Shown: positions 12,570 through 63,352 of the stretch, piece after piece
Numbering within the stretch: the first letter of the stretch is position 1
Layout: every line of letters starts with the position of its first letter
DNA from: Eledone cirrhosa
Lineage: Eukaryota
NCBI GenBank assembly: GCA_964016885.1
Contig: OZ024741.1
Coordinates: forward strand, 174,468,001-174,532,000
Direction of reading: 5' to 3'
DNA: 64,000 nucleotides
Translations under genes and position numbers: made by a program
Notes under the pieces: generated by a model
The model's input: the letters and a program-made list of their open reading frames with translations, nothing else
Told to the model about the DNA's origin: nothing
Databases searched by the model: none

Positions 12570-12754
12570 ACGAGAATAAATACTCAGTACCATAGTTGAG
12601 ATTCATACTTTTATTAAGGTCGAGTCAGTGTCCTGTCACTCTGGAGTTTCGCCTGTGTCCACGAGGTCATTGAACAGTCATGACTGTCTGATGACCTCGT
12701 CGACACACTGGCGAAACTCCAGAGTAACAGGACACTGACTCGATCTTAATAAAA
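12570..12754. mobile_element. Penelope-like pLTR remnant; fold-back palindrome with a degenerate hammerhead motif
   Basis: Imperfect inverted repeat 12609-12754; + strand CTGT-CTGATGA-...-GAAA-CTC-CA-GAG-TA-ACAG (12684-12730). Confidence 0.6.
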
Positions 12755-12755
12755 C

Positions 12756-12789
<34 letters not shown>

Positions 12790-12828
12790 ATCATTTAACG
12801 TGTGTTTTCCTTGATAGCAAGAGCTGAA

Positions 12829-12885
<57 letters not shown>

Positions 12886-12886
<1 letters not shown>

Positions 12887-13066
12887 CGAAGGAAATGTGG
12901 TAAGGAACCAGGTGGACCATAACGCACCAAAGTACTCAATACTTAGGGTAGTAGAGTGGGTAATAGGAACCAGTAAGACCCCGACGGCTGAGCTCAAGCC
13001 GTTTCGACGGCGAATTAGCCGTCGAAACGGCTTGAGCTCAGCCGTCGGGGTCTTACTGGTTCCTAT
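12886..13066 (-). mobile_element. Penelope-like pLTR remnant between (TA)n tracts with a perfect 49-bp-arm hairpin
   Basis: Arms 12963-13011 and 13018-13066 are exact reverse complements and contain GAAA-CGGC..GCCG-TC; TTGAGTAC tail motif on the minus strand. Confidence 0.6.
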
Positions 13067-13074
13067 ATATATAT

Positions 13075-13205
13075 CCCTGATGATTTCTCACGAATGAAAC
13101 AATTCTAGTCCTGTAGAAGCTCCTCTATATTAAAACTTGTATACTCTGCTATGTAATGAGTACCTTACTTACTGTGGTTACCTCTGATTCAACCGGGAAT
13201 AACTT
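13075..13205 (+). mobile_element. 5'-truncated pLTR-like remnant with a hammerhead core
   Basis: CTGATGA (13077) ... GAAAC (13096) ... GTC (13108) ... TGAGTAC ... (TA)n; the 5' strand of stem I is missing. Confidence 0.45.
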
Positions 13206-13869
13206 ATATATATATATGTATTCGGTTAAATGTACACACACACACACATATATATGTGTGTGTGTGTACATTTAACTGAATACAATACAGACAGACTATA
13301 TATATACATGCATTCGGATGTGCACACGTATATGCGTATGTACGTATATATTAGAATAAATTAGTTTGTATTGATTTTTTATTATTTCTTACATTCCTAT
13401 AAATGTGAAATCCTTGTAGTAAATTAGAGATGAAATATAAAATGTTAGGTATGTTAGTGTTTTTTTCTTTCTTTTGTGATTAATACACACACTGTACACA
13501 ATAATTTCATTATAATTATTATTATTATACGCACACACACACATATATATATTCACGCACATATATATATATATAAATATTTATGCATACACACACACAC
13601 ACACATATATATACATAGATATATAATGTATGACTCCATTTGCGCCACATGGTGGCTAAACAACACGCAGAAGTGTCTGTGTTTGTTTTTTCTTCAGTGA
13701 ATACCAACAACGATGTCAACCTCAGCCTCATTCCCTGTCTTCTGCTCTTCCACACTTTTTCAACCAACGTACAACACCACCATCACCACCACCCTCTTAG
13801 CTTTCCCCACAACTACAATAAATTCTAGGCATTGAAAAATGACGTCAAAATCAATTCTCCCAGTGTTTT

Positions 13870-14338
13870 CCTTTCTCTCTTTCTCTCTCACATGTCTCTC
13901 TTTATCACGCTTTCCCTATTACATGTCTCTCTCTCATATGTCTCTCTTTATCTCTCTCTCTCCTGTTACATATCTTTTTATCTCTCTCTCTTTCCCTATT
14001 ACATGTCTCTCTCTCCCTCTCACATGTCTCTTTTTACCCCCCTCTCTCTCACATGTCTCTCATTATCTCTCTCTCTCACACGTCTCTCTTTATCTCTCTC
14101 TCCCTGTTACATGTCTCTCTTTATCTCACCCTGTCTCTCTCTCTTACATGTCTCTATATCTCACCCTGTCTATCTCTCTCTCTCTCTCCTCTTTTTTTCT
14201 CCACATCTGTTTCTGTCTCTTTGATTTATATACTCTCATATACACATTCTTTCTCTCTCTATCACGTCTGTTTATTTTTCTCTCTCCATTACATTTGTTT
14301 TTGTCTTTCTCTGATTTATACATATACATTTTCTCTTA

Positions 14339-14415
<77 letters not shown>
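13870..14415. repeat. Degenerate CT-rich repeat (ACATGTCTCTC motif) ending in pure (CT)n
   Basis: Recurrent ACATGTCTCTCT units; (CT)n at ~14341-14415. Confidence 0.8.
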
Positions 14416-14417
<2 letters not shown>

Positions 14418-15047
14418 ATTTATCTATCTACATCATCATTGAACTTCCATTTTCCCTGCTACCAATTCCACCACATATCTGCTTCTCTTTCTTTTTTCTC
14501 ATCACATCTGTTTCTGTCCGATTTACTATATCTCTCTCACTTTCTACCCCCTCCCTTATTACCTCTACCGACATCTCTTTTTCTCCACCTTCTCTCTTTC
14601 CTCTACCTCCTATATCCTGGTGTCCTTAAGAGAGAACTATCTCTTCTTCTTCTTCTTCGTCTGGCTTTTTCATATAACAACAATACCAATCAAAACAAAC
14701 AATAATAGAACAACTTCTGTGATTATATATATGTGTGTGTATATATATTTCCCTCCACTAACACCATCATCGCCACCACACCCTTTCTCTAGGTCCCAAT
14801 CAATATATTCACCATCATGGCACTTAGTTTTGTCATTGTTATGATAATTATGGCACGATATCTTTGAATTATTTTTTATTTCCCCCTTTTTTTTCTCCAT
14901 CTTAAATGTTGTGGTCTTTTTCTTCTTTTCGTTTGTCCACTCAATCTTTATGTTATCTCGCATTTTTTATTCTCTCTCTGTCTCTCCATTTCCCTTTCTC
15001 TATTCGATATCTCTCCCGAAAAATCTGCCATGATTTGCGTGTGTGTG

Positions 15048-15078
<31 letters not shown>

Positions 15079-15544
15079 ATGTGTGTATGTATGTTGCCAG
15101 TGCTCCTGAATGTGTTTTCTATAAGGTTAAATACTTCATATCGATTTTAGGTTGAAGAAAGGATTCGTTCAGATGTGTCTTGTTTGACAGCTTCTGTTGA
15201 CTTTATTTTTTTTTCTTTAGAATTGTTGTGGTTGTTGTTGCAATCTTTAACTCTTTTGTTACAGCATTTCCAATGAAATACACTATCGATGTCTTTCAAT
15301 TAATTATAAAAATATTCAAGAATCTGAAGGGTTTTAGTAATATAATAACCTCTTATTAATGTCGAAATTAGGAATATAACTTAAAATTTTTGATACTAAA
15401 CTACTCCTGGTTCTATGTATAAAAACTGATTGTTTTTAAATATTTTATCTAAAAACCTTTCTTTATAATTTTATGTAAGAACCTTTAAGGTTCTGAACTC
15501 CAACTTAATAACGAGAAATTTATATTACAAAATCCCTCCAAATT

Positions 15545-15905
15545 CTTCAGCTGCTGCTTTGCCCACTTTTTCCTGGGATGGTGGTGGGGGGCAGAATCCA
15601 CAAACACTCCTTTCAGCGGGTCCTGTCAGAAGCAACCTTCTCCAACTGATCCGGCTGGACCCCCAAGCATGACCAGCCTAACGCTGAGTTTTTTGCTGGC
15701 TGGTTTTGCATGTAAAATCTACCCAGCAATTCTTTCCCAAGACATTCTAACCAAATACTTATAGTATCGGAGCTGTAATCTCTCAATTTGGAGAAGTAGT
15801 GGCTTTACCTGAAGTGACTCTCTAATCTCCAAGCTACACACTCTATCAGGTAACGTTACTCCAAAGACCCTTTGGATGAACCCCATTTCGGCTGCTTGTA
15901 TTCGT
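15545..15905 (-). mobile_element. RTE-clade LINE 3' fragment
   Basis: Translation IQAAEMGFIQRVFGVTLPDRVCSLEIRESLQVKPLLLQIERLQLRYYKYLVRM is a typical RTE post-RT region (xQLRWxGHxxRM). Confidence 0.8.
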
Positions 15906-15980
15906 GATTGTATTCTTAAATTCTTCATTATTTTTTAAATGTTTTGAAAATCAGGGAGTGCCTTTCATTAGAAATATGAT

Positions 15981-16167
15981 AATTGTTTCTACTTTAGGCA
16001 CAAGGCCAGCAATTACCCAGTGCATTACTGGTACTTTATTTTATCGACCCCGTAAGGATGAAAGGCAAAGTCAACCTCGGCGGGATTTGAACTCAGATCG
16101 TAAAGGGACATATAACTATGCTGGAAAGCATGGCGTCCGACCCTCTACCGATACTGCCAATCCACCG
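15981..16167 (-). mobile_element. SINE family A, young copy
   Basis: Near-identical reverse complement of 6258-6447 and of the 53635-54012 units. Confidence 0.85.
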
Positions 16168-16920
16168 TATGATAATGAAATGGTTTAAGAAAGAGTTTTG
16201 TGTTGTTTCTTACTTAAAATTTTGACTTTAACCTTTTCATTACAATATTTCTATTAAGACACTACCTATGATTTTCAAATCATTTTGCAAATAATGGAAA
16301 ATTTGGAGAGATTTAGTAATATAGCTAACTTCCACATTATTTATCCAATGTTTGGAACAAAACATATCACGGGTTATTACAGGAAATTATGATTGAAGTT
16401 CTTTAGATAAGATATAAACTAGCTCAAAATCATACCTAAAAAATTAAATTGTTTTTGTTTTCAATTTTGTCATTTTGAATAAGTATATTTTAGTTGATGG
16501 TGGTATTTAACCAGTTTGATCAAACATGCCCTTACTAAAAATGTTATCTCTGTAACATTCTCTCTGTAGTTTAAGGCATCAGCTAAACATGAACAGTTGC
16601 CTGATCTTGCAAGATGGTTCAAGAATTATAGGAAATATGTCAGGACTTTCTCTATTAGAACAATTTTGCTAAATTGAGACAAATGGATGATTCTATTGAA
16701 ATTCCATTGAAAATGTGCATAATTTTCAAGTTCTGTTTTTTCCTCCATTCAGTTCTCATTTCTCTGAAGAAGTATGTAGTTCATAATGTTACAATTAATT
16801 CCTTTTCCCCTTATCCAAAGTTTTAACCCAATAACTTCAATTTTTATTACATACAACTCTTTTTGTGCTTTCATTCTCACTCTATATATATGTGTGCGTG
16901 TCTCCCTCTCTCTCTCTCCC

Positions 16921-17002
<82 letters not shown>

Positions 17003-18711
17003 GTGATTTTGACATGAAGGGCAGAATTGCTACCATTTTCCAGTGTGTCATTAGCTGTGAATAACAATCTACTGGGGAACAATGCAAAGGAGAAAGAACA
17101 ACAACAAAATTACCACAGGGTCTATAAAAAATTACATACAGGAAGGTTTTAAGACTTGGGCAAACAATGCAGACATGTATTGATGTTGGGCCACATGTAT
17201 TACTTAGTCAAAGAAATCAATATTTTCATTGAAAAGAAATCACTGAAAGCTGAAGGAGACATTTTAACACATCTTCCTCTTTATATTCCTCACACTTACT
17301 GTGGTTCTTACAATGACATGATTTAACTTAATTATCTGGAGAAAATAAATATAAAGTAACTCAATGAAATATTTGGCTACAACCTCCTTTATTGGACAAA
17401 TTTCATTTTTTTTTATCATTCATGAAAGAAAAATAAAAGTGAATATGTTATTTTGAAGAAATTTTATTTATTAATTAATTCCTCAATTTCAATATTTCTC
17501 AGCTTGTTCCATTTAATAGAGGTGTATATGAAGATATATATAATATGTTTATGGATAAAGTCATGCTATGAATTTTTTAACACAGATCATGTCAGATATC
17601 TCTATAGCCGTGTGAGAATGTCAGACGTGTTTCTTGATTTTTTATCAAACATTGGTTACATTTACTCACTCAGTACTGAGACAAGAATAAGCTATAGCTT
17701 ATATACTTTTTGATTTAAAACATCTGCTGGTGAGGCTCATTTGCATATAGTATGAGCTTGACTAGCTAGTAGTAGCACTAACATAGCGTGATTTATAATA
17801 GTGGTGTATATGAAAGCATATACGCTATATATTTAGTGTAATAAACATATCTAAGTCTTGCTATGAATGTTTTAACATTGATCATATCACAACTATCTCA
17901 GTAGCCATGTGAGAATGCCAGACATGTGTTTCTGGATTTTTATCTGTCATCAGTGACATAGTTCGAAATGATGATGATGATGATGTTGACAATTTCATTT
18001 TTTTTTAAATTTCTCATGAAAGAAAAATATTATATATATGGTATTTTGAAGAAATTTTTATTAATTAATCCCTCTATTTCCATATTTCTCAACTTTTTCC
18101 ATTTAGTTCCATTTTTCACTGTTTTTCACATCTCTTGGGTTTTATGCTTGCATTATTCTTGAGGTCAAAGATGGTGCATTAGCAGTATTTGTCTGGCTCT
18201 TTACATTCTGAGTTCAAATCCTGTAGAGTCAGCTTTGCCTTTCGTCTTTCCAGGGTCAATAATAAAATAAGTATCAGTCACATACTGGGGTCAGTATAAT
18301 CGACAGTCCCTCCACCTTGTGCCTAAATTAGAAGTCCTTATTCTTGATAGATGTCCCAGTTTTTAGAATAAATACACTGTATCCCTGCCTGTTGTAGGAG
18401 GTGACTAAAAGGAAGAGCATCTGGCTATAAAACATTGTCTCAAAAGATCCCCACCCAACCTATGCCATCATGCAAAAGTGGACACAAAAACCATGATCAT
18501 CATCATAATCATAATGTAGGTTATCTGTCAGTTTTCATCTCCTAGAGACGGGTTTCTTGCTCAGAGAATATCTTATTTCACAAGCGATTGTTTGGTATTG
18601 CTGATTTCATTGTAGAGTTTTTCAGGCAGTTATTTTGTTATGTTTCCATGTGTACATATATAATTGGTAAAAGAAATGTGAATGTCATAGCATCATTGTG
18701 TTGTGTTTTTA

Positions 18712-19180
18712 TGTGTACATGGGTATCTGTATAAACGGTTATGGTGCATGTGTACATATGTATGTATATAAACAGTTACAGTACATATGTACATATTTAT
18801 GTATAAAAACGGTACATGTGTATGTATATAAATGGTTATAATACATGTGAACATATGTATGTATATACATGTGCACATATGTATGTATATAAATGGTTAT
18901 GGTACATGTATACATATGTATGTATATACATGGTTAAGGTACATGTCATCATCATCATCATCGTTTAACGTCCATCTTCCACGCTAGCATGGGTTAGACG
19001 GGAGTTGTCCCATTTGAGGCAAGGTTGGTCGGGTGACCGCGTCTCGCTCATATAGGACTATCTGGCAGGTTTTCTACGGCTGGATGCCCTTCTTAACACC
19101 AACCACATTTACAGTGTGTATGTATATAAACGATTATAGTACATGTGTATGTCTATAAACAGTTATGGTAGATGTGTATG
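18712..19180. repeat. Degenerate ~40-bp repeat (GGTTATGGTACATGT..ATGTATGTATATAAA) interrupted by an RTE 3'-end fragment (18946-19115, minus)
   Basis: Recurring motif that resumes at 20445-20510 after the RTE insertion. Confidence 0.6.
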
Positions 19181-19181
19181 T

Positions 19182-20445
19182 ATCATCATCATCATCATCA
19201 CCGTTTTACGTCCGTTCTTCCACGCTAACATGGGTTAGATGGGTTGTCCTGTTGTGGGCAGTGTCTGGTCGGCTGACCATGCCTTGCTCATACAGGAACT
19301 GATTTGGCTTGATTTCTACAGCTGGATGCCCTTCCTAACACCAACCTCATTTACAGTGAGTGCTGGGTGCTTTTTCGTGGTGCCTACACGTCCACTTTAC
19401 AGTGTGGGCTGGGTGCTTTTTTGCCGTGGCACCCCCACGACCACCTTGCGGTGGGGGGTGTGGGGGCATATTGTCTATATGCTTCAGCTTGTACCCATGG
19501 GAGGTCGGGTACTCTGTATTACTGCGTGACGCCAGAGGTCACGGTCGTGTGTCATTGCCTTTGAGAGGTGTAATTGGGTAAGGTCGGCTTTTATCACCTC
19601 ATCCCAGGTCATCTTGGGTCTCCCCACTCCGCGGTTTCCATCGACTTCTAGTGCTCTGCACCTTTTTATGCAGCTGTCATCCTTCATACGCATCACATGT
19701 CCATACCAGCGCAACCGCCTCTCCTGCACACAGCATTTGATTCCTCTTATGCTCAGTCTCTCTCTCAATTCATTTATGCTTTGTTGTTCACGTATATTAC
19801 TGTTACACATCCATCGGAGCATGCAGGCTTCGTTCCTCTCTAATCTACGTAAGTCTTCCACCTTCAGCGCCCAGGTCACACTACCATGCAACGTCGTTGT
19901 TCGGATACACGCATCATACCGTCTGCCTTTCATTCTGAGGGAGAAGCCTTTTGCAGCTAGCAGTGGTAGTAGTTCCCTAAACTTCTTCCATCCCATTCTT
20001 ACCCTAGTTATTGTACTTTCTGAACACCTACCTCCGCTGCTAATTCGGTCACCTAGGTAGCAGAAGCTGTCTACTGTTTCTACAGAGCCCTCCCAGAGAT
20101 TGGTGGTACTTGTTTCCTGTGGCTGTTTGCTGTCCCAGCACAGCTGCTGCATGTGAAGCCTACATTCTTAATTAAGCTTCCCGAGATCCCGCTACATCTC
20201 TTGTGTACCCATTGTTTACATTTGGGGCAGAGAATGGAGTTCCTACCTACACCTTTCCTACATACTGAGCAAGGCCATTTCCCTGAGGGGATCTGGGTTC
20301 TGTTTTCTCGTCTACTTACAAGGACCTTAGTCTTTGTCATGTTGACTTTGAGACCCTTTCTTTCTAGTCCCTGCTTCCAAGTTTGGAATTTATTCTCTAG
20401 TTCTACCATAGATTCAGCTATAAGTGCAAGGTCATCAGCATATAC
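19182..20445 (-). mobile_element. 5'-truncated RTE-like LINE: RT C-terminal half with an embedded C4HC3 finger, 3' UTR, (GAT)n tail
   Basis: YADDLALIAES at ~20442, GLKVNMTKTK, CSVC..CPKC..HKRC..CSSC, frameshift near 20100, FCYLGD, RRLRWYGHVMRM, GRPKMTW. Confidence 0.92.
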
Positions 20446-20739
20446 GGTTATGGTACATATGTATGTGTATATAAATGGTTACAGTACATATAAACAGCAA
20501 TGGTACATGAGATGGTGAATGTCAGGGAAGACTCATAATAAAGAAATAAGCTATTATCTGTATTATATGTATTGTACTTGATTTCTCACTTGTAAATCTA
20601 CACACACACACACCTATAGAAAGCAAAAGAGACATATAAATATATATAATCAATTATATGTATATACATACATATATTTAAACAATACAGGTATATATGT
20701 ATATATAATATAAGGAAGCCTTGGAGTGGGGAGACCCAA

Positions 20740-21054: not shown

Positions 21055-21072
21055 TGTGTGTGTGTGTGTGTG

Positions 21073-21420: not shown

Positions 21421-21477
<57 letters not shown>

Positions 21478-25830: not shown

Positions 25831-25839
25831 ATATACATC

Positions 25840-26374: not shown

Positions 26375-26466
26375 TATATGTAAAAGGTAAACAGAAATAA
26401 CAACACAATCGGTACAGTATATGGAAGGGATATATTAGGTTAATGCTTGATATAGCAAGAAGAGGG

Positions 26467-26502
26467 TCTTAACGTTTCAGACGCTAGTTCTTCATCAGAA
26501 GA
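26467..26502 (-). ncRNA. Minimal type I hammerhead ribozyme motif in a ~230-bp insert (26380-26612) between (TA)n tracts
   Basis: Minus strand TCTT-CTGATGA-AGA(ACTAGCG)TCT-GAAA-CG-TT-AAGA: stems I and II pair; loop-less palindromic stem III. Confidence 0.65.
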
Positions 26503-26611
26503 AAGAATGAGAAATAAGATAGATTGAGGGGACGGGCGGGATGGAATTGGAAAAAATGTCTCTAGATAAAAATAATAGGTTGACATCTCTTGCAAAACTG
26601 TTGGTGCTGGC

Positions 26612-26663
<52 letters not shown>

Positions 26664-27170: not shown

Positions 27171-27489
27171 TATTATTCAAAATATTAATAAATGGAGAGA
27201 TTCACGTAATCAAAATATATGTTTTATTATATATATTTCGGAGGTATTGTGCTGTTTTTTCAGTACATCCTCATCAGATAAAATACCTGATGAGGACGTA
27301 CTGAAAAAACAGCACAGTACCTCCGAAATATATATAATAAAACATATATTTTGATTACGTGAATCTCTCCATTTATTAAAATTTTGAATAATATTAATAA
27401 CTCCAGAAAACTTCCTTGTTGAGTGCTTTTATTCTATTGTAAAACTATATTCATTGAATAATCAATGAACCTTGTTTAACATTTGGTCA
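27171..27489. mobile_element. Hammerhead-bearing fold-back element (PLE pLTR-like) in (TA)n
   Basis: 107-bp arms 27171-27277 / 27287-27393. Minus strand TTTTAT-CTGATGA-long stem II-GAAA-TATATA-TA-ATAAAA. TTGTTGAGTGCTTT tail. Confidence 0.75.
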
Positions 27490-27876
27490 TATATATATAT
27501 ATATAAAATGTGTATATATATACACACACACATACACAAAAACTGAGCTTCTTTTACAGTCTCTAAATTCACTTACTAAACCCACTTACAAGACATTGGT
27601 TAGTGTTCATATAGTGGCAAAAGAACTCAAAACCATATGGTTGCAAAGCAAACTTTTTAACCACACATCCATACCTGCCAGTACCTTAACACAGACATGC
27701 CTATTCTTAGTAATATATAATTTTACATTGTAATTAGAGAGAAATAAATTTTAAAAAAATTTCAGATTAAAAACAAATCTGTAAAATGTTGAAGAATGAG
27801 AGGAAAAGATGCTCTTTGACATTATTAAGATATATTCTAAGACAAACTGACAAATGTCTTCTATTTTTTTATTTTT

Positions 27877-27915: not shown

Positions 27916-28939
27916 CTGCTTTTGTTCTTGTCTAGTGCTTTAAATCCTGTTAATTATCGAGAGGTGATTTTAGAGTTTCTATCTGTTTTATTTAATTTTA
28001 TTCATTTATATATGTATAATAGTAACAGTAGTAGTAGTAATAGTGGTAGTGGTGGTGGTGGTGGTGGTGGTGGTGGTAGTAGTAGGTGGCGGTGGTGGCA
28101 GCGGCAGTAGAAGTGGTGGTGATGACAACCAGAATATGGTGGTTCACTAGAAGCTCGGATGAAATTATTGAAAACATGATGTTAATGATGATGATGATGA
28201 TGATATCATGGTGCACTTGAAGTTTGCAAGCTGTGGAAAACCTAATAGTGGATGATGATAATGGTGATAATAATAATTTCAAATTTAGGCACAAGGCCAG
28301 CAAATTTGGGGGAAGGGCAATGTTGATTAAATGAAGCCCAGTACATCACTGGTACTTCATTTTATTGACATTGGAAGGATGAAAGGCAAAGTTGACCTTG
28401 ACAGGATTTGAACTCACAATATAAAGAGTCAAAACAAATACCACAATGACATTTTATCTAATGCTTTAACAATTCTGCACGTGGGCTCCCATTTGCTCAT
28501 AATAGTGAGAAATGGCGGAAGCAGGAGTGACAGAAGCAACGACAGTGGGAGCTTGGTTCCTTTGTGTTCAGATCTGATGTATATGTTTCATAGACACACA
28601 CTAATATTGTCTATTGTAGTCATTATTAATCCTGCCGAGGTTGACTTTGCCTTTCATCCTTACGGGGTCGATAAAATAAAGTACCAGTAATGCACTGGGT
28701 AATTGCTGGCCTTGTGTCTAAAGTAGAAACACTTATTACTATAATTATTATTTTTGATATTAATGTGTGACTATAGAACATTCTGCCAATCCACCACCCT
28801 ATTTTATGTACTGCTCTACCAATTTTGCCAGTTTATGCTGTAGTTTCAATGAGGTATTAGTGGTTGGGATTTGATTTCTATCTTTTATTTGATGAACTAA
28901 GTCTAAAGTCTGTCTTAAGCCAAAAGGCTCATTAGGTTT

Positions 28940-29185: not shown

Positions 29186-29934
29186 CTTCGATGCTTTGGG
29201 ATTGCTGGCTTAGGATGACCCTGGCCTCATTGAGCAAGAGCAAGAAGAAGAAGAATTTGATGAACACTAGTATCATCTCTCCATAGAGCCAATCACTGGT
29301 TCACTGTATTTCCAGTGTCAAGTGTGTGTGTATGCTGTGGTAGTATATGAATGGTAGAATAAATAGAATAGAAAGTGTTTTTCAAAGTTGTGTTTATCTA
29401 GTAAATGATTACATCTGAGATCATGTTTTGAAACTAAAGTAGTTACATCATGGAAGAGTCATTTTAGTCATTAAAAAAAAAGCAAACAAAAAGAACTCAA
29501 ATCCCACAAACTGGTAACTTCACTTTATATTTATCAATTACTTCTTGGTGTCAAAATTTTCATCACAAAAAGTGTGGCGAAAATTTTAACACCCAGAAAT
29601 AAATGGTAGGTGTGAAATAAAGTTAATAGTTTTTCTCTGTTTTTTCAGTGGCTAAAATGACTCTTCCAGGATGTAATTGACAAAGTATTTTTTAAAATAA
29701 AATCATTGCTTTGTATTTGTGCTGATGTGTATTGACAAAAGATATGCACACACATCACACACACATAGACACACACACACACACACATACACACAACACA
29801 CACACATACACACAACACACACAGGAGTAAAAGTGAAAAAGGTAAACAGATTGTTCCAGTTATTAAATCAATGGACTAACCTATGTTTTAAAACAATGTG
29901 CAAGTAGCAGACCATTCTACAGTCACATATACAT

Positions 29935-36227: not shown

Positions 36228-36933
36228 CATCATCATCATCATCATCATCATCAACGTTTAACGTCCGTGTTCCACGCTTGCATGGGTTTGGACGGGGGTT
36301 TTCCCACTTGAGGCAAGAGTGATTGTCTTGCTCGCATAGGACTGTCTGGCAGGTTTTCTACAGTTGGATGCCCTTCCTAACACCAACCACATTTACAGTT
36401 GGGGGCTGGGAGGTTTTTACCGTGTTGCCTACACGGCCACATTACAGCGTGGACTGTGTGTTTTTTTTGTCGTGACACCTACACGATCTCATTTGTTTCG
36501 GCCTGGATGGTGTGGCACCAACATAACTTTACATAGAAGGGGGCGGTGTGGATGTGGTGGGGGTGGTGGGACGGGGTGTATTTTGTTAGAGATGCCTACT
36601 GACTTAGTAGGTTTTACTATGTATTTAGGTAAGGCGGGTCTTCTCTATTACTGAGTACCGCCAAAGGTCTCGGTCCAGTGACATTGTCTTGGAGAGGTGT
36701 AAGTGTGTGAGGTCGGAGTTTATCAGCTCGTCCCAGGTTTTTCTAGGTCTGCCTATTCCGTGGCTACCGTCTATCTTTATTGCCCTGCACTTTGTTATAC
36801 AGCTATCGACTTTCATGCGCATCACGTGTCCATACCAACGTAGCCTTCTCTCGAGTAAACAACATCTGATCCCTCTTATTTCTAATTTTTTCTTTAGTTC
36901 GTTTATGCTTTGCCGTTCACGTATATTACTATT

Positions 36934-36937
<4 letters not shown>
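36227..36937 (-). mobile_element. 5'-truncated RTE-like LINE (second subfamily) between (TA)n tracts
   Basis: MCNSNIRERQSINEL..ERRLRWYGHVMRM..GRPRKTW, 3' UTR, (GAT)n tail; 3'-end copies at 55372-55423 and 63890-63997. Confidence 0.9.
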
Positions 36938-39169: not shown

Positions 39170-40970
39170 CAGCTTCATCTAAATTACACCAGTTACTAAC
39201 TATTACACTAGCTACTAACTATTACACAGCTTCATCTAAATTACACCAGTTACTAACTATTACACAGCTTCATCTAAATTACACCAGTTACTAACTATTA
39301 CACAGCTTCATCTAAATTACACCAACTACTAACTATTACACATCTTCATCTAAATTACACCAGTTACTAACTATTACACATCTTCATCTAAATTACACCA
39401 GCTACTAACTATTACACAGCTTCATCTAAATTACACCAGTTACTAACTATTACACAGCTTCATCTAAATTACACCAGTTACTAACTATTACACATCTTCA
39501 TCTAAATTACACCAGTTACTAACTATTACACATCTTCAGCTAAATTACACCAACTACTAACTATTACACATCTTCATCTAAATTACACCAGTTACTAACT
39601 ATTACACATCTTCAGCTAAATTACACCAGTTACTAACTATTACACAGCTTCATCTAAATTACACCAGTTACTAACTATTACACAGCTTCATCTAAATTAC
39701 ACCAGCTACTAACTATTACACAGCTTCATCTAAATTACACCAGTTACTAACTATTACACAGCTTCATCTAAATTACACCAACTACTAACTATTACACATA
39801 TTCATCTAAATTACACCAACTACTAACTATTACACAGCTTCATCTAAATTACACCAACTACTAACTATTACACAGCTTCATCTAAATTACACCAGTTACT
39901 AACTATTACACAGCTTCATCTAAATTACACCAGCTACGAACTATTACACATCTTCATCTAAATTACACCAGCTACTAACTATTACACAGCTTCATCTAAA
40001 TTACACCAGCTACTAACTATTACACAGCTTCATCTAAATTACACCAACTACTAACTATTACATAGCTTCATCTAAATTACACCAACTACTAACTATTACA
40101 CAGCTTCATCTAAATTACACCAGCTACTAACTATTACACAGCTTCATCTAAATTACACCAGTTACTAACTATTACACATCTTCATCTAAATTACACCAGC
40201 TACTAACTATTACACAGCTTCATCTAAATTACACCAGTTACTAACTATTACACAGCTTTGTTTAAATTACACTAGTTACTAACTATTACACAGCTTCAGC
40301 TAAATTACACCAGCTACTAACTATTACACAGCTTTGTTTAAATTACACCAGCTACTAACTATTACACATCTTCATCTAAATTACACCAGCTACTAACTAT
40401 TACACAGCTTTGTTTAAATTACACCAGTTACTAACTATTACACAGCTTTGTTTAAATTACACCAGCTACTAACTATTACACAGCTTTGTTTAAATTACAC
40501 CAGCTACTAACTATTACACATCTTCATCTAAATTACACCAGCTACTAACTATTACACATCTTCATCTAAATTACACCAGCTACTAACTATTACACATCTT
40601 CATCTAAATTACACCAGCTACTAACTATTACACAGCTTTGTTTAAATTACACCAGTTACTAACTATTACACAGCTTTGTTTAAATTACACCAGCTACTAA
40701 CTATTACACATCTTCATCTAAATTACACCAGCTACTAACTATTACACATCTTCATCTAAATTACACCAGCTACTAACTATTACACATCTTCATCTAAATT
40801 ACACCAGCTACTAACTATTACACAGCTTTGTTTAAATCACACCAGTTACTAACTATTACATAGCTTTGTTTAAATTACACCAGCTACTAACTATTACACA
40901 TCTTCATCTAAATTACACCAGTTACTAACTATTACATAGCTTTGTTTAAATTACACCAGTTACTAACTAT
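39170..40970. repeat. 38-bp tandem minisatellite, ~47 copies
   Basis: Unit CAGCTTCATCTAAATTACACCAGTTACTAACTATTACA; period 38 (e.g. 39241 to 39279). Confidence 0.97.
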
Positions 40971-40975
40971 TTTTA

Positions 40976-47299: not shown

Positions 47300-47487
47300 A
47301 ATTGTTTCTACTTTTGGCACAAGGCCAGTAATTACCCAGTACATTACTGGTACTTTATTTTATCGACCCCGTAAGGATGAAAGGCAAAGTTAACCTCGGT
47401 GGGATTTGAACTCAGAATGGCAAGGGCCGTAACTCTATGCGTCAAAGCATGGCGTCCGACGCCTCTACCGATACTGCCAATCCACCA
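47300..47487 (-). mobile_element. SINE family A
   Basis: Reverse-complement match to family A; flanked by the direct repeat ACCTTATTTAAAAATAAT (TSD). A + strand copy follows at 47595-47790. Confidence 0.85.
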
Positions 47488-47799
47488 ACCTTATTTAAAA
47501 ATAATGATTAGTATCAGGATAGGCATCTGTCTGTGGGAAAATCTCAAAAGTCAGTTGTTGTAAAAATAGTGATTATTATTATTATTACTGTTGAGGGCAG
47601 TAGATTGGCAGAATCAGTAGAGTGTCATACACCATGCTTTGCAGCATAGAGTTCAAATCCCACCGAGGTTAGCTTTGCTTTTCATCCTTATGGGGTCGAT
47701 AAAATAAAGTACCAGTAATGCACTGGAGTCAGTTTAATCAACTTTCCCTTCCCTTCAAATTGCTGGCCTTTGCCTAAAGTAAAAACAATTATTATTATT

Positions 47800-54012: not shown

Positions 54013-55279
54013 ATTATTTTATATTCACTTTCCATGTTGGCATGGGTTTGATGGGTTGATATAGTTCTATTGAGTTCATATTCAAAGTTACTGTCCTCCT
54101 AGATAGGTTGGATGACATGCATCTCTCTTGAGTATTCCAATTTTGGCTTAGTTTCTATGGCTGGGTATCCTTTGTAACACCAACTGCTTTACAAAGTGTA
54201 CATGGTGCATTTTATGGTGGTACCAGCATTAAGGCAGTTGTCATGTCCTTGCTAAGTGTAAAGAACCTTCTCTACTCTACATTGTCTCTATTCAATTACC
54301 AACACTGGGGAATTTACCTTGGCTCATACATCACAAAAGTGTCCTCTCCACAGTCATATGCATTATTTTCATTATTTTACGTCTGATTTTTCATATTGGC
54401 ATGGGTTAGCTGGTTGTTATCATTCATCTCAGTAAGCATTATCTAGCAACAGAAACAAAACCCCGGTCATTTTTGTTGTTCTGTATGTATTACAGTGTGA
54501 ATTAGGTGTGTATTCTAAAAGACAATGTGGTCAGATAATAGCCAGGCATACCTGAAACTGTTGCATTTGTCTTGTGAAGCACTGGGGCAGAATCAGTTTC
54601 AATCGGTACAACACTTACATACTTTTGGCCATCTAAGAAGTTGATTTGCTTTTCACATATCATCATCATTATAACCTTGTTTCTCTGTCTAGAGTTATAT
54701 TTAATATTCATAACATGTAAAATACCATCATCATCATCATTTAATATCCATTTTCCCTGCCAAAAAGGGTTGGACAGGTCATCATGACCAAGTCAGTACT
54801 TCAGTGGAGCTACTGACTTCCAAATTGGGCAGGTGCTGGTGTCTCATTTTTGTGAGTTCTTGCACTTTATTCAGTGTTCAGATGGGCTGAGGGCCTGCAT
54901 CTCACGTACATATGTTCCCACACTCTAATGAGTACTGAGATGAGCTGAGGACAAGCATCTATTTTACATGTTCCTACACTCTCCAAAGTGTTCAGACAGC
55001 AGAGGTGCCCCTGCACTTCACTTACAAAACATGTAAAATATGTTTCAAAACATATTTAATCATACACCATGGCATTCCACTGAAAGTAATTCACACCTTA
55101 GTGTTATCAGTTAAGCATTTTCATTTATTTACCTAACTTGCATTCCTTCACCAACCTGGTATTATATGGTGTAATAAATACATCAAATTATGACAGATCA
55201 CAATATCTACATCAGCATTTATATATGTTTGTGTGTGTATATATATATATATATATATACACATACATGTGTGGGTATA

Positions 55280-55316
<37 letters not shown>

Positions 55317-55323
55317 GGATAGA

Positions 55324-55356
<33 letters not shown>

Positions 55357-57718
55357 GTATGTGTGTATATATCATCATCAACGTTTAACGTCCGTGTTCC
55401 ACGCTTGCATGGGTTTGGACGGGATATATATATATATACAGAGAGATACATTTATAGACACTGTAACTATTATGAACAAGCTATTCTAATATATGTAATA
55501 ATAAATCTCCTAAAAATAAAAATATGACAGCTTCCTACCATAATCAGTTAAATTTGAGAAGTTTAACATCAGATAATATAATATATATCAAAGAAAATAT
55601 TATAACTAAATTATAGTGAAATCACATTTGAATGACTATAAATAGAATTTACTGTGAATTTATTCATCTACTTAGTGAACGCTATTATTAATAGTAGCCA
55701 TCTCACATTGTTATTGTCTGTTCCTTGCAGACTGAAGAGATGTTTCATGCCCACTGAATAGTATCGGGTATATTAACTGAGGAGAGGAGGGACAGAGGTC
55801 AAGTTGCACCAACTTTCAATGGAACTTGACCAATTTTTACTGCAATGCTTGGTGTGACAAAAACAAAACAAGTAGAAAAATAGAAAAGAAAAAATCCTAC
55901 CAACAATGATAGTGCATATATCATTATCATTACCATCATCATCATCATCGGGGCTGTGGATTGGTAGAATCGTTAAAGTGTTGGACAAAATACTTTTGTC
56001 ATTTAGTTATGGCCTCTTACATTCTTAGTTCAAATCTCACCAAAGTCAACTTTGCCTTTCATCCCTTCCCCTAAATTTGTAAGCCTTGTGTCTATGCTGG
56101 AAACCATTATCATCATCATCATACTTTTATGTTCATTTTCCATGCTGTCATGGCTTTGATAACTTATTGTAGTCTGATATTACATAGGTCAGGTCATCAA
56201 GGTTTGTGCATTCATTCCATTTTTGGCATGGTTTCTGCTGATCGAATGCCTTTCCTTATACCAACTAAAATCTACTGGGTACATTGTATTGTGGCATTAA
56301 CACTATATATATATATATAAACCCCACTAAAATGATTTCACAGCACTACTCCTAGCATAAGCCTACAGACCTCCTTTTACAGTGTAATGCAAATTGTTGT
56401 TCCTTAATCCAATATCAGGTCCTACAATTTTCTATATATCCTTACAAAATACCTATAAATATATGAATTCAACATGTGGTTCCCTTCTTTTCCATTCTTG
56501 CATCCACACACATACTTGTCACAGTACCTAGGAATGTGTAAAAAAAAAAAAGCTGAAATGTAATAGGATTTCCACTAGCCAAGCAGATTTCTTTTCATAT
56601 GTAGCTGTCTACACTTCTGAAAACCTATCGCTATTGTATTTATAGTCTAAATCCCATTAAATTTTGTTAATTCTCCACATATAGCATAAACTGTTACTTG
56701 AGCATGAAAATTTCTAGATTCTTAAAACTAAAATCTACTGTGTTTACGTTTACTGTATGTTTATATCTCATAATTTTGAAGCTCAACAAAATGTGATCAA
56801 TAAGTACTGGGGTTGATATCATTGACTAAATACCTTCAAGGCAATGTCTCACCATGGCCACAGTCTAATTACTGAAGCCAGTAAAAGAATAAAAGAATAT
56901 ATACGCATGGTTGTAGTGCTGGTGCCACAAGAAAAGCACCCAACTCACTCTGTAAGGTGGTTGTGCTGTTTCCATGACAAAAGCACCCAATCCAACCTGT
57001 AAGGTAATACTGGTGCCACGAAAAAAGCTCCCAGTACACACTGTATAGTGGTTGGCATTAGGAAAGGCATCCGGCTGTAGAAAACCAAGCCAAAAACAGA
57101 TCACATAAGCAAGATGTGGTCTCCTGACCTGTCTTGCATCAGTACATGACAACCTGGGCGGGATTTGAACGCAGAACGTAAAGGTTTGTAACTCTATACT
57201 GCAAACCATATTATCCGACGCTCTACCGATTCTGCCAATCCACCGCCTAATAATAATAATAATAATAATAATTTCTTTCTTTATTTATTTATTTATTCAT
57301 AAATAAATAAATAATAAAGAAATAAAGAAAGAAACCATTATTATTTATTTATTTATAATAATAATAATAATAATAATAGCAAAAATTATGATAATACTTC
57401 TACCACCATCACCATCAATACACCAGCTGTTAAAGGCTCTCTTCCAACCAATTCAAATAGCTGCCTGGAATTTCTTTTATTAGAACCTAGGTATGGGCAG
57501 CAGCTAGGGCGTGGTAGTTTATATCTTTGGTGGAGGGGGTTGGAATATTGACAACCAGGAAATCTTCATGAGTCTGGGCAATAGCTAGGGTGTGGTAATT
57601 TTGGCTTTGATGGTGGTGGTGGTGGTGGTGGTGGTGGTGGAGGTGGCAAGAGGGGTGGTTGGAATATTGACTAATGGATACTACCAAATATTAGGTACAG
57701 TCCTTTCTTGGTGATAAA

Positions 57719-57962
57719 ATGATCATCACTGCCACCAACACCTCCACCATCATTATCAATATCATTACCATCATCATCACCACCATCTTCACTACCCCAT
57801 CATCTCCATCACCACCACACCATCATCCTCATCATCATTACCACCACCCCCATCACTATCCCCATCATCTCTACCATCATCATTATCACCACAACACCCA
57901 TCATCACCCACCACCACCACCCTCATTCTTGTCACCACCACTTCCATCACCATCACCATCAC
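57719..57962. repeat. Degenerate (CAT/CAC)n trinucleotide tract
   Basis: Low-complexity CAT/CAC runs; similar tracts at 28020-28120 and 38910-39072. Confidence 0.8.
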
Positions 57963-58427
57963 GTTAATGACTATGATGACAGTTGTCATGAGCTATGAAC
58001 CATGTAGTAAAATGTCTGTTGGTTCCAGTTGCCAAGATTCCAACCCAGATGTTTCCCAGCTGATACCAATATGGACCGGAATGAGCCAGATGACTAACAT
58101 TAGGAACATCTGTTGCAATCTCCTGCCAGCCTGCTGCACATTCTTGTTTTTGTTTACAACCAAAGCAACAACGCCATTCTCTCTCTCTCTCTCTCCCTCC
58201 TCTCTCTCTGTTTCTCATTCTCTTTCCTCCCTCTCTGTCTCTATCTCCCTTTCTCCCCTCCCTCTCCCTTTCTCTCTCCCTCTTTTTTCTCCTACTTTCT
58301 TTCTCCCCCCTCCCTTTCTTTGTTTATTTCTTCACCCACTTTCAGAAAAAAGGCAAGAACCCAACGTTAAATTCTTCACTCTACATGACAATTGAATTTA
58401 CAAACAAAACTCTTTTATAAACTCTTT

Positions 58428-58464
<37 letters not shown>

Positions 58465-58612
58465 TGGGTTTTAAATATATACACCACATCCTATCCCCCC
58501 CCCCCCTCATTTTTTCCCAATCTCATATATCCATCTTGCTTTATTTTTCATATGTTGATTTAGCACTTCACTGCTCGCAAGTGTTTTTTAAGCTTCATAT
58601 CATGTTTCCCTA

Positions 58613-58679
58613 TTTTATCTGATGAGAACGCAAGTATCATCCCATGATGATATTTGTTTTTGAAATGCGCATAGTGGAG
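58613..58679 (+). ncRNA. Type I hammerhead ribozyme motif with extended stem II
   Basis: TTTTAT-CTGATGA-GAACGCAAGTATCATC(CCAT)GATGATATTTGTTTTT-GAAA-TGCGCA-TA-GTGGAG. Stem I is mostly G-U. Lies in a ~250-bp insert between TA/TG and TA tracts. Confidence 0.65.
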
Positions 58680-58740
58680 TACTTGGAACTCTTTTAACCA
58701 TCTTTTGATCTTATATTATATATATATGTATATATATATG

Positions 58741-58771
<31 letters not shown>

Positions 58772-58840
58772 GTATATATATATATATGTATATATATATG
58801 TATATATATATGTATATATATATATATATATCCCCCCCCC

Positions 58841-59114
58841 CCACTGCAAGGTGGTCGTGGAGGTGCCACGGCAAAAAAGCACCCAGCCCACACTGTAAAG
58901 TGGACGTGTAGGCGCCACGAAAAAGCACCCATCACTCACTGTAAATGAGGTTGGTGTTAGGAAGGGCATCCAGCTGTAGAAATCAAGCCAAATCAGTTCC
59001 TGTATGACCAAGGCATGGTCAGCCGACCAGACACTGCCCACAACAGGACAACCCGTCTAACCCATGCTAGCGTGGAAGAACGGACGTAAAACGGTGATGA
59101 TGATGATGATGATG
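58841..59114 (+). mobile_element. RTE 3'-UTR fragment, nearly identical to 19182-19455
   Basis: Direct sequence match on the opposite strand; (GAT)n tail. Confidence 0.85.
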
Positions 59115-59543
59115 ACATCCCTGTCTAACATTGATGAGATAGAGGTGCCACTGAAATATATCATCATCATCATCGTCATCATTGTCATTCACTTTTCCAT
59201 GCTGGTATATATATATTGGACAAGATGTTTTGAGACAATGTTTTGCAACCGGATGCCTTTCCTGATACCAAACATTTTAGTCACCTCTTATGACATACAA
59301 GGATATGATGTACCTATTCTTGTTAGATTAAAATAGATAAACATGACATTTGGCCATCTACTTGAAAACATCTGAGGCTTTCCTGCCTTGCTAAGAGAGA
59401 ACATGATTGAGAACTGTTTCAGTATTCTAGCCCTAGATATATTATAATACTGGTACAATACCAATCTATGGACTGGTATTTCTTTTTATCTGGATATAAT
59501 TATGGGCAGAAACTTGAACACACACACACACACTCTCTCTCTC

Positions 59544-59579
<36 letters not shown>

Positions 59580-62500
59580 CTGCATAGTTTCTGCCTCCAA
59601 ATGCATTCATAAGACATTGGTCAGTCCGAGGCTGTTGGAGAAAACACTTGTCCAAGGTATCATGCAGTAGGATAGAACCAGCAACTAGGTTACTGTGAAA
59701 CAAACTTCTGAACTAGACTGTGTCTCAATGACCACAGATTATTTGTATTTCCTCTTTCAGACTCTCCTAGTCATATTTAACTAAAGTAGATTTAGTTTTT
59801 GGCTTGTATCTCGCAATTATGAGAGCAGACAGGTCTCATGTTATGTTATGGACATTTTGTTTTCTCTATAATGTAGTCTTTAAGTGTCATATTTCTTGGT
59901 TGTAATACGTTGGGCTCATCTGATGGCTACTATATCAGATAGAAAGAAAAAATAACAAAACATACTTTTTTTTCCATTGAAGAGACTGGAGTTGAGAAAA
60001 ACTCAATAACATGAAGTTAACAGTCTGGTAAACATGTACTTAAATTATTCATCTAAAAGAGCTAGATGAGTTGTTTAGTTGCTGAGATGATGAAAGCGTC
60101 ATACTACTGCTTGCTGCTGCTGCTGTTGTTATTTGGCTCCAGGTCAACCCTGATTGAGCAGACATATGATTTAAAGGCACTCTATTTATGACCATCTCTC
60201 CTTTTGGGATGTGTTTAGCATTGCGTTATTTCGTTTGTGCTTCCCTTTCTTTAAAGATAGTAGGATGAGATTTGAAGAAGATTTGGCTGCTATTTTTAGC
60301 AGATCGAACAGCTTCGTAGAGACTCCCTCAGGGGTACAGGGACAACTATTTTGTACAGAAAAGTGTTGGTTGTCATGAATGGTGGTGTAGCAGCATTATT
60401 GTCCACTGGTTGTCATCAACAGCAGCAGCATCATTAACATCAGTTTTACCTGCTGCTAATAATTGGATGGTTTGTCACAGACCAAGTCAGTACTTAAAGC
60501 CACTGATCTCTCAGATGGACTGAGACCCATCTCACTTACATATGTTCCTGCACTCTACAAAGTGAGAAACACCATGCAATTGTGGCGCTAGCAATAGGGG
60601 TGGGGGTGGGGGTCGCCATATCTTTAACACAACTGAAAGTCCTCTCAACCCATTTTGACATGGTTTCTACTGCTGGATGCTCTTCATATCACCAACCATT
60701 TTACAGTGTTCTGGGTGTGTTTTATTATGGCACCAGAAAAGGTAAAAAGGATTCTCTAGAAATGGAGAGTGACAGAGTTCTTAGTTTGGATCTAATCAGT
60801 TATGGTAGTAAAAAGAACCTTAACAAAGTTAATGCAAGCCAAATCTAGATTAAACAAAATGCAGTTTAGGTTTGATGCAGCAAATGGAACCTCAGATGCC
60901 ATATTTAATGAGACAACTGCAGAAGGCCTTAACTAAGTCAATTTATTAATGTAGTCTAGTTTCCACTGAGAGAGTTAGGTCTAGAGCAATGTTTCCCAAC
61001 ATTTTTTACTATCAATAACCCCTTTTATTAGAATTAATGTCTCCCCTTGCTGCAATTCCCCCCTCCCCTTGCGCCCCGCCCAGATTGTTTTATGGTGAAA
61101 ATAATGATCAAAAGAGAGAAATCTTTATACTTAAAGAAGAATGGATACTCAATTGCATGTATATATTATATTTTTAATAAAGTACATGAAATTTTGAGCT
61201 TAGCTTAAAAATACCCAGTATTAAGGCACGGTCTTTCATAAGAATATGGCCAGGAAAGGGTTGGAGTACCAGATACGAAAAAGTAGTCTGGAATCAAAAG
61301 GCTTCAATTGCAAAGTTTAAATGACCTTGTTAGTAACAGAGAATATAAATTCCCAGTGCCATCTGAGAAGTGGCTTTGCTATTTATAACAGAAGGAAGGA
61401 GATAGAAACTCAACAATGCTTTGTACTCAAAGTCAACTATAGATATACATATGGTGGAATGTATAGTAGACTGGTAGTAGATAAATAAATGAGGAGACAT
61501 GAAATCATCATCACTGTTTTACCCTTTAACGTATTGTTCACAAAATGACTAATATGAAAATCTCATAGATTCAATATTATGTGAGATAAAGCCTTTACCA
61601 TGAAAATACAATAGTAAATATAGAGTAATGTAAATGCTAAAGGGTTGAAGTCTATTTTCTTTATGTGCATGGGTTAGATGGACTGTTATGTTATGTTATG
61701 ATACTAGAGAGATCAAGCGACCACGCCTTGCTCATGTAATCCATTTTGGGCTTTGATTTCTCTAGCTGAATGCCCTCCCTAATGCCAACCACATTTCATT
61801 ATGTACTGGGAGTTTTTATAGTGAAACCAGCACTACCACCTTGCAGGGTGGACTGTGTGCTTTTTGTTGTTGTACCAATATGACTACCTTATTGAGTGAA
61901 CTGGGTGATTTTTACTGGTCTCAGTAATTAGACGCTGGCCCTGCTGAAGCTTTGACTTATATAGATGATCATATCGATTCCAATACATGTATGTACTGTA
62001 TATATCAAATTTACAGACCTCACCGGATCAAGGTGTGACATGGCCAACTATGGCCAGACTTGCCTCCCTGCGTGGACGGCTCGTCTAACTCATGCAAGCA
62101 TGGAAAAATGGACGCTAAACAGTGTTGCTGCTGATGATGATGATACATATGTGTGTGTGTGTGTGTGTGTGAAAAGTAAATGGAAAAAACACAGTAGCTG
62201 ATGAAGTACAATAAAAAATATATATTAGTTTCATGCTTAATACAGTAGGAAAAGTCTTAACATTTATAAGCTCATCATATAAGGACAGTTTAGCAGCTGG
62301 TGGAATCTCTTTGTAGACTGGTAAATAAACAAGAAATCAGACATAGAACTATACTTTATGCTTATATATATATATTTTATATACTTTATAAAACTCCTTT
62401 TTCAATATTTGTTTCTATTTTTGGCACAAGGCCAGCAGTTACCCAGTGCATTACCGGTACTTTATTTTATCAACCCCATAAGGAAGAAAGGCAAAGTTAA

Positions 62501-62701
62501 CCTCGGCATCAATAATGTCACTTTGACTGATCAACAAAGAAAAAAGAAAAACAGATTGTTTAAATATATTTCTGTGCTGTTTCCAATCCTACTTTTTTTC
62601 TATAACCTCTGTTTTGTATAGAAACTTACTTCCTTTTCAAATATATATATATATATAAAATAATAATAATGAAATTATTGTGTACAGTGCTCAGGTGCAC
62701 T

Positions 62702-62736
<35 letters not shown>

Positions 62737-62738
62737 CG

Positions 62739-63111
62739 ATATTAACAAATGGAAACTATATTTATAAAACCATATTTATTTCATTATACATATTTCAAGG
62801 ACACCAAGTTAAATTATGGTGTGCTTTCATCAGATAAAATATAATATAGAGCAGTTTTATAAATAAATATTGACATACCCTTAAAGAATGCGACCATTTC
62901 TGTTGGAAGCTCCCGGATAGTGATTATATTTTATCTGATGAAAGCACACCATAATTTAACTTGGTGTCCTTGAAATATGTATAATGAAATAAATATGCTT
63001 TTATAAATATAGTTTCCATTTGTTAATATATCATATTTTTACTCCAATAATTTGTTGAGTGCTTTGTTATAAAAATATTTGCATGTTGGATCCCAACAAT
63101 TTAAATAGAAC

Positions 63112-63114
<3 letters not shown>
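62739..63114. mobile_element. Hammerhead-bearing fold-back element (PLE pLTR-like) in (TA)n
   Basis: Arms 62739-62845 / 62923-63029 (one mismatch seen) with a 77-bp spacer. + strand TTTTAT-CTGATGA-AAGCACACCA(10 nt)TGGTGTCCTT-GAAA-TATGTA-TA-ATGAAA. TTGTTGAGTGCTTT tail. Confidence 0.8.
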
Positions 63115-63149
<35 letters not shown>

Positions 63150-63152
<3 letters not shown>

Positions 63153-63352
63153 AATGGAAGTAGAGCATATTCGAAGCTCGAGCCGCAGCTAAGCCGACGA
63201 ATGCATTCAGAAGTGCAGCCAAGCACTCAATAAGGTATAAAACCTTAGAGTAATAACATACAGTTTAAAGGGCTTTGCAAATTGAAGATAGCGACCGGTA
63301 ATTCAGCCGCGGGGACCATAGCAACGAAAGAACTGACTCGCGAGAAAAAATA
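63150..63352 (-). mobile_element. CpG-rich pLTR-tail-like insert between (TA)n tracts
   Basis: Minus strand TATTGAGTGCTT ~70 nt before (TA)n, as in the hammerhead elements; no hammerhead core seen. Confidence 0.4.

Follow-up and report, generated by a model that had tools for sequence, protein, structure and literature searches.

Penelope-like elements (PLEs) are the sister group of telomerase reverse transcriptase (RT). Much of their biology is already in print in the parts of the literature drawn on here, including hammerhead ribozymes in their pseudo-long terminal repeats (pLTRs; PMC4209133, PMC8557442), a U3-A8 variant of the hammerhead core (PMC4209133), the occurrence in an octopus of Hydra-clade elements that target (TA)n (PMC8557442), a tail on one of two inverted pLTRs (PMC3846280) and non-autonomous elements (PMC8557442; 10.64898/2026.07.22.740005). 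Only one in vitro system addresses how PLEs choose internal start sites and how tails and inversions form: PAc, a Poseidon PLE of Anolis, in which reverse transcription starts internally at two sites bracketing the tail and requires the RNA 3′ of them, both target strands are cut and extended, and hammerhead cleavage is dispensable (PMC11167929). Here we analyzed a 64,000-nt window of the Eledone cirrhosa genome (contig OZ024741.1, positions 174,468,001 to 174,532,000), in which an original prediction, made from the sequence alone, had described seven short ribozyme-bearing inserts and a possible eighth (63150). All eight lie where they had been placed, and their supposed diversity is borne out: each belongs to a separate multicopy family, named below by its position in the window. 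They are almost certainly 5′-truncated PLE ends, comprising a pLTR and in some cases a tail, inserted in (TA)n. Their hammerheads are ordinary; the Hydra-clade families additionally carry a twin bulged hairpin, apparently an undescribed cis motif in known elements. From sequence comparison, we put at roughly 60% the probability that this hairpin pair provides the RNA signals fixing the reverse-transcription starts that create the PLE tail.

The hairpin explains a word singled out by the original prediction, TGAGTRC, which forms its 3′ strand; the partner is an upstream RCTC, and the two enclose a variable stem-loop and a 2-nt bulge. The structure is found twice, at a spacing of 55–74 nt, downstream of the hammerhead and ahead of the start codon, with hairpin 2 mostly 12–43 nt before the ATG. 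Within the window, a bulged-hairpin descriptor matched five times, compared to a shuffle mean of 0.63 (maximum 3). Conservation was assessed in 78 Hydra loci fetched from marine metagenomes, taken from the best 80 of 262 relatives. Outside the matched spans, a strict descriptor found 35 sense and 2 antisense matches, and the 10 sense matches inside the spans fell nearly all where a pLTR interrupts the span. Anchoring on the outer words recovered at least one hairpin in 39 of 57 hammerhead segments and two in 22. Across 52 distinct metagenome hairpins, the first inner pair was formed in 51 (31 C-G, 19 U-A), the bulge always began with U (UU 37, UC 11, UA 4), and inner pairs 1–3 totaled 122, versus 83 ± 5 in partner shuffles that ignore relatedness. 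When 37 metagenome open reading frame (ORF) starts were picked by protein motif alone, two hairpins lay within 190 nt in 25 cases and one in 10, compared to controls of 0/37 inside the ORF and 4/37 on the antisense strand. The outer pair is G-C in the metagenome loci and A-U in most Eledone cirrhosa families. In this genome, hairpin 2 was seen in run-through copies of the 62739, 12886 and 63150 families and of a young family outside the window.

Among published entries inspected by eye in the material of PMC8557442, the hairpin is present in Hydra-2_Amil, Hydra-1_Ajap (twice) and Hydra-2_Ajap. An 8-mer search of the same material matched Hydra entries and also found a perfect copy in the Naiad entry just before Naiad_Obim, which may reflect chance, a nested Hydra piece or wider use; because all other matches outside Hydra were unrelated, we confine our claim to that clade. 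No earlier description of the twin hairpin was found in the open-access literature, a search with closed-access papers, Repbase reports, figures and bioRxiv supplements outside its scope. The word 'hairpin' does not occur in the main text of PMC8557442, and word searches of 10.64898/2026.07.22.740005 and PMC3846280 returned no description of a twin hairpin.

We then related the hairpins to insertion ends, using natural copies as rulers and counting TA-flanked ends. Family searches of the 3.0-Gb genome scored 40 candidates each and fetched 14–20 loci (labeled L). Ends peaked twice in five families. For 62739, the peaks comprise 10 copies ending 4 nt short of hairpin 1 and 21 ending 3 nt short of hairpin 2; the 12886 and 27171 families each peak 5 nt before hairpin 1 (12 copies each), and 12886 has a second peak 3 nt before hairpin 2. 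BLAST extension placed 12 copies of the 58465 family at hairpin 1, and four of nine 13075 ends fall 5 nt before hairpin 1, the others a few bases earlier. By exact matching, modal end-to-hairpin gaps were 2–6 nt, with second modes of 7 and 8 nt in two cases. Twelve end comparisons were available from metagenomes, of which four ended 0–3 nt before a hairpin and three at a contig end. The Neptune-type 26380 family, which has no hairpin, showed one end position only. Inverted insertions from five Hydra families (n = 101) comprised 84 long-plus-short, 2 long-plus-long and 1 short-plus-short pairs, with 14 not classifiable; thus 84 of 87 classifiable insertions join one long to one short end, four of the families having been searched with tail-bearing queries that guarantee one long end. 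The tail-less query used for 58465 gave 17 long-plus-short pairs and no short-plus-short pair.

These observations suggest a mechanism in which one protein head occupies each hairpin and primes upstream of it, to which we assign about 55–60%. The element RNA would extend beyond its own 3′ end and take in the following pLTR, supplying both hairpins, which would be bound by the RT/endonuclease (EN) protein, probably as a dimer. This protein would nick both strands of the (TA)n target, and each nicked end would pair with a short UA stretch 5′ of one hairpin and prime there. The hairpin in use would be left uncopied, so that the tail would equal the hairpin spacing, and the two aborted complementary DNAs (cDNAs) would be joined head to head to yield fold-backs, with the hammerhead copied along as a passenger. 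Such a scheme would account for the tail length, the long-plus-short pairs and the need for a read-through pLTR. It resembles PAc in its two starts bracketing the tail, AT-rich target, both-strand extension and, as found for PAc, dispensable hammerhead (PMC11167929). Most hammerhead copies in the window are damaged or locked in fold-backs, and it is unlikely that most of them cleave.

The motif could instead act in DNA, with the GIY-YIG EN recognizing it in the pLTR or cDNA and cutting a few bases upstream, such that ends arise from resolution. PMC8557442 explains the tail by EN-mediated resolution, the EN of D. virilis Penelope was dependent on a tail present in DNA (cited in PMC11167929), and the end positions are as compatible with DNA resolution as with RNA initiation; moreover, three outer A·C pairs would be G·T on the opposite strand. 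The fixed 2-nt 3′ bulge and the compensatory inner pairs, however, fit a folded single strand, and internal RNA initiation at both tail boundaries was shown for the Poseidon element (PMC11167929), leading us to regard action in DNA as unlikely, though a serious contender. We give lower odds still to a role of the hairpins in expression (as internal promoter, or in translation or RNA stability), with ends set by adjoining TA-rich microhomology. The placement of hairpin 2 ahead of the ATG, the UA-rich sequence at both end sites and the disregard of hairpin 1 by the 63150 family would all suit such a role. Yet pLTRs contain many other TA-rich spots, and ends nonetheless peak twice, 2–6 nt before hairpins, in unrelated sequences, while the 63150 unit keeps both hairpins despite being non-coding and ends 4–8 nt before hairpin 2.

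It is highly improbable that the inserts are dedicated hammerhead retroelements akin to non-LTR (non-long terminal repeat) retrozymes, self-cleaving, circularizing and spreading as short units. Hammerheads are conserved within each family, a non-coding tandem unit exists (63150), animal retrozymes derive from PLE pLTRs (10.64898/2026.07.22.740005), and a single fold-back junction is identical at 14/14 top loci of the 12886 family (window 12963–13066, L088–L101). Other junctions recur too, and recurrence of the 12886 junction could mean either that a hairpin subfamily is copied whole or that joining favors this point. But no tandem hammerhead arrays occur in the loci seen, the 63150 tandem unit lacks a hammerhead, and in fold-back copies the ribozyme is predicted to be sequestered by pairing. 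Because 5′ ends differ between copies and longer copies run into RT/EN frames, the retrozyme-like elements of the original prediction are mostly truncated ends of coding elements. For the inversions themselves, self-priming on an antisense template, proposed earlier for PLEs (PMC3846280), is another possible route.

Several observations weigh against RNA start signals at the hairpin pair. Two of the 37 ORF starts lack any hairpin, and the one 13075 run-through copy carries, in the place of hairpin 2, only a short variant that lacks the bulge. Hairpin 2 was unseen for 27171, where a pattern search for a run-through copy gave no match, and for 58465, for which no run-through copy was seen. Among the PMC8557442 entries, the hairpin is degenerate in Hydra-1_Crog and was not seen by eye in the ends of Hydra-1_Obim. 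Wobble pairs are not numerous enough to distinguish an RNA from a DNA hairpin. On the side of the ends, a strict classifier left many copies unclassified, five of the 12 metagenome comparisons stop 16–36 nt short (probably from divergence), and the tail-bearing queries ensure one long end by design. Finally, the 63150 family has hairpin 1, yet 0/33 copies stop at it in TA, and inverted arms were not observed.

The origin of the inserts was established by comparing family members. The original prediction had attributed them to PLE pLTRs with microsatellite (TA)n targeting and inversions, which this comparison supports, and had suggested looking for RT and GIY-YIG frames beside longer copies; these were found for 26380 and for five families (12886, 13075, 27171, 58465 and 62739) that adjoin Hydra-clade frames elsewhere in the genome. 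RT and EN frames lie ~1.4 kb upstream of the 27171 sequence in L086, and an EN frame lies 0.9–1.1 kb upstream in 5/15 loci of the 58465 family. The 62739 pLTR runs through hairpin 2 directly into an ORF in L087 and follows the same EN by 1.8 kb in L136. A 12886 copy (L120) continues into hairpin 2 and then a Hydra-type ORF start, as does a 13075 copy (L299, the second at its locus) into a Hydra-type ORF start; when run-through copies of 13075 were sought by pattern, most of the matches were (TC)n neighbors. All frames seen for these five families are broken or partial.

The linked frames carry the Hydra hallmarks RW[KR], DKT, TMG..YRDD, CxCX5C and CxxC/CxH. RWK and DKT are present in the 12886, 13075 and 62739 frames; the 27171, 58465 and 62739 families have a CxCX5C linker and C-terminal CxxC and CxH without CCHH, judged by eye against PMC8557442. 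The assignment is based on these motifs and on 29 homologs that lack informative names. An initial reading of the linked RT as Naiad or Nematis was rejected in favor of Hydra on comparison with the PMC8557442 files, and Naiad, which has an N-terminal EN and no canonical hammerhead, was ruled out because here the EN follows the RT and hammerheads are present. Pfam searches returned only sub-threshold GIY-YIG matches and a spurious ComR_TPR match. Compared with the Hydra clade of PMC8557442, which includes the octopus Hydra-1_Obim, these elements share the C-terminal GIY-YIG, RWK, DKT and CxCX5C linker, as well as (TA)n insertion, a hammerhead near the 3′ end, 5′ truncation, inverted copies and a one-ended tail. 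That paper treats a small number of Hydra families, whereas at least six occur here, and to its description they add 3′ untranslated regions of 0.9–1.8 kb, tails of about 75–95 nt, U3-A8 and CAGAAGA hammerhead cores, and the twin hairpins. The CAGAAGA core belongs to a hammerhead-like fold in the young Hydra family outside the window (L282–L287, e.g., G000:C2:269883187 onward), which has open 709-aa frames in 6/6 fetched copies, chosen for long open frames. A Hydra N-terminal query gave 12012 first-look candidates.

Neptune, originally cited as an example of a microsatellite-targeting clade, accounts for 26380 alone, the main clade being Hydra. In 3/15 loci of this family, a C-terminal EN frame with a CX2-5CxxC linker and CCHH lies shortly upstream; its match to Pfam GIY-YIG (E 0.016) is below cut-off, and by eye its linker resembles that of Neptune1_Nv in the PMC8557442 supplement. 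C-terminal EN, linker, CCHH, minimal hammerhead and microsatellite target are all shared with the Neptune clade, the family being known here from the C-terminal part of the RT and the EN alone. No RT/EN frame occurs in 15 loci of the 12570 family, whose hammerhead layout resembles Hydra entries of the PMC8557442 supplement and whose degenerate hairpin would likewise suit that clade.

Structural features of the eight inserts are collected in the table.

Table. PLE-derived inserts in the 64-kb window, with arms of inverted copies on separate lines
Insert	Span	Strand	Description	Hammerhead and hairpin
12570	12560..12756	.	Head-to-head inverted pLTR end; old family, 71-94% to other copies	
12570, - arm		-	Long	Degenerate tail hairpin 12581-12602; hammerhead core mutated
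12570, + arm		+	Short	Hammerhead 12684-12730 (+), C.C at stem II base
12886	12886..13066	-	Fold-back (- arm long, + arm short) of a young Hydra-clade family, up to 99%	5′ half of hammerhead core missing; hairpin 1 at 12957-12932
13075	13075..13206	+	Hydra-clade long end	Truncated at hammerhead core, stem I lost; hairpin 1 at 13143-13163
26380	26381..26612	-	Neptune-type PLE end; single end position	Minimal hammerhead 26467-26502; no tail hairpin
27171	27172..27490	.	Hydra-clade fold-back	
27171, - arm		-	Short	Full hammerhead 27222-27283
27171, + arm		+	Long	Core at 27287, stem I lost; hairpin 1 at 27400-27426
58465	58470..58716	+	Hydra-clade short end, stopping just 5′ of hairpin 1	Hammerhead 58613-58679
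62739	62737..63117	.	Hydra-clade inverted insertion	
62739, - arm		-	Short	Hammerhead 62779-62839
62739, + arm		+	Long	Hammerhead 62929-62989; hairpin 1 at 63041-63062
63150	63151..63352	-	Part A of non-coding A-B-(TA)n-A unit, ~610 nt	No hammerhead; hairpin 1 at 63251-63223

Five matches to a type I hammerhead descriptor were found in the window (58619+, 62935+, 62833-, 27277- and 26498-), each inside a named insert, whereas 60 local dinucleotide shuffles, a control that the original prediction had itself proposed, averaged 0.08 matches and never exceeded 1. The same five matches satisfy a strict minimal definition (core, stem I, stem II, A15.1-U16.1, H17), and a sixth, at 12688+, was recognized by eye. 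CTGATGA alone occurs 21 times in the window, 8 of them within inserts. The predicted order of CTGATGA, stem II, GAAA, short or palindromic stem III and UH holds in six of the eight inserts; it fails in 63150, which has no core, and in 12886, which retains the GAAA half only and indeed lacks CTGATGA, as had been noted. The hammerhead is also incomplete in 13075 and at 27287+, the 5′ strand of stem I being cut off in 13075 and in the 27171 + arm. TGAGT(G/A)C is present in five inserts (12886, 13075, 27171, 62739 and 63150), degenerate in 12570 and absent from 26380 and 58465, and (TA)n brackets most inserts; 12570 ends in (CA)n on one side. Overlooked earlier was that 12570, 12886, 27171 and 62739 are head-to-head inverted repeats, predicted to fold as long hairpins that bury the ribozyme. 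As previously stated, the window holds no recognizable RT/GIY-YIG ORF: tblastn with six PLE proteins found no PLE coding sequence. Rfam returned no hammerhead family among the 150 listed of 160 matches at E ≤ 5.

Previously described PLE hammerheads share the short stem I, long stem II, palindromic or absent stem III and U3-A8 variant seen here, as well as opposite-strand pairs 100–700 bp apart and mostly solo truncated copies. Nothing essential differs; two families here have a stem III of 4–6 bp, which could permit monomer activity in full-length RNA. In a longer 12886 copy the hammerhead is complete, its core being the U3-A8 variant and its stem III 6 bp long. Separately, the 58465 copy differs from the commonest family letter at nine positions in 58538–58679 (+). 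Eight of these are A-to-G changes, of which six are private or nearly so and four lie together in the 3′ strand of stem I of the hammerhead. In this single copy, the cluster looks like A-to-I editing of RNA before insertion; no A-to-G strand bias was found genome-wide (0.0054 versus 0.0059) or across the family.

The 63150 family showed its tandem arrangement in 16 loci fetched with part B: some of part A precedes B in 15, and A follows B within about 60 nt in 11, follows after a nested insert in 3 and is absent in 2. In other copies, a long-looped hairpin 2 opens part B. Rfam searches of the unit found nothing above chance and no tRNA match. Part B (L123, L126, L138–L153) contains words resembling an A box and a B box. 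Like MRC1 of Chlamydomonas (PMC8557442) and non-LTR retrozymes (10.64898/2026.07.22.740005), the unit is short, non-coding and partially tandem, with a PLE-type end; unlike them, as described there, it lacks a hammerhead, has (TA)n in its interior and retains both Hydra hairpins.

Family copies generally have a sharp common 3′ end at (TA)n and a variable 5′ end, and in five families a microsatellite follows the long end in 17/18, 22/23, 16/17, 34/35 and 10/11 copies. First-look candidates, which are not copy numbers, amounted to 1717 for 27171, 1026 for 62739, 73 for 12570, 532 for 58465, 3815 for 26380, 771 for 12886, 2471 for 13075 and 2851 for 63150. The originally quoted rate of about one insert per 9 kb likely reflects local clustering: outside the window, another of the eight families lies no more than 3.2 kb away in 33/118 loci, a pattern that insertion into TA repeats, with TA repeats left behind each time, would be expected to produce.

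Inverted repeats elsewhere in the window, at 47336, 28337, 15918 and 29443, were rejected as PLE ends. At 47336–47726 and at 28337–28699, copies of a common short interspersed repeat form a head-to-head pair, and 29443–29676 resembles a miniature inverted-repeat transposable element. Two tandem arrays, at 1–5662 (65-bp unit × 87, 96% matches) and 39202–40971 (38-bp unit × 47, 94% matches), gave no hammerhead match. Fragments at 19484–20478 (-) and 36625–36937 resemble the RT C-terminus of a long interspersed nuclear element, presumably of RTE type. An open frame of 541 codons at 7971–9599 (+), of low complexity and rich in Ser, Thr, Asn and Gln, is possibly the first coding exon of a host gene.

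Collectively, these results offer a short conserved cis motif that predicts both ends of an insertion, making the question of start sites in PLEs directly testable, and the young family with open 709-aa frames provides test material from Eledone cirrhosa itself. The hairpin is also a simple tag with which to find and bound Hydra elements and their non-coding passengers. More tentatively, and at somewhat less than even odds, the hairpin pair may be where, in Hydra elements across marine animals, a two-headed RT/endonuclease loads, with each head priming a few bases upstream of its hairpin on one strand of (TA)n. If so, two-headed loading would explain the tail, the one-long-one-short ends and the need for tandem pLTRs; non-coding units keeping only the hairpins could be mobilized; and the position of the template would be fixed by RNA structure in a telomerase-like way.

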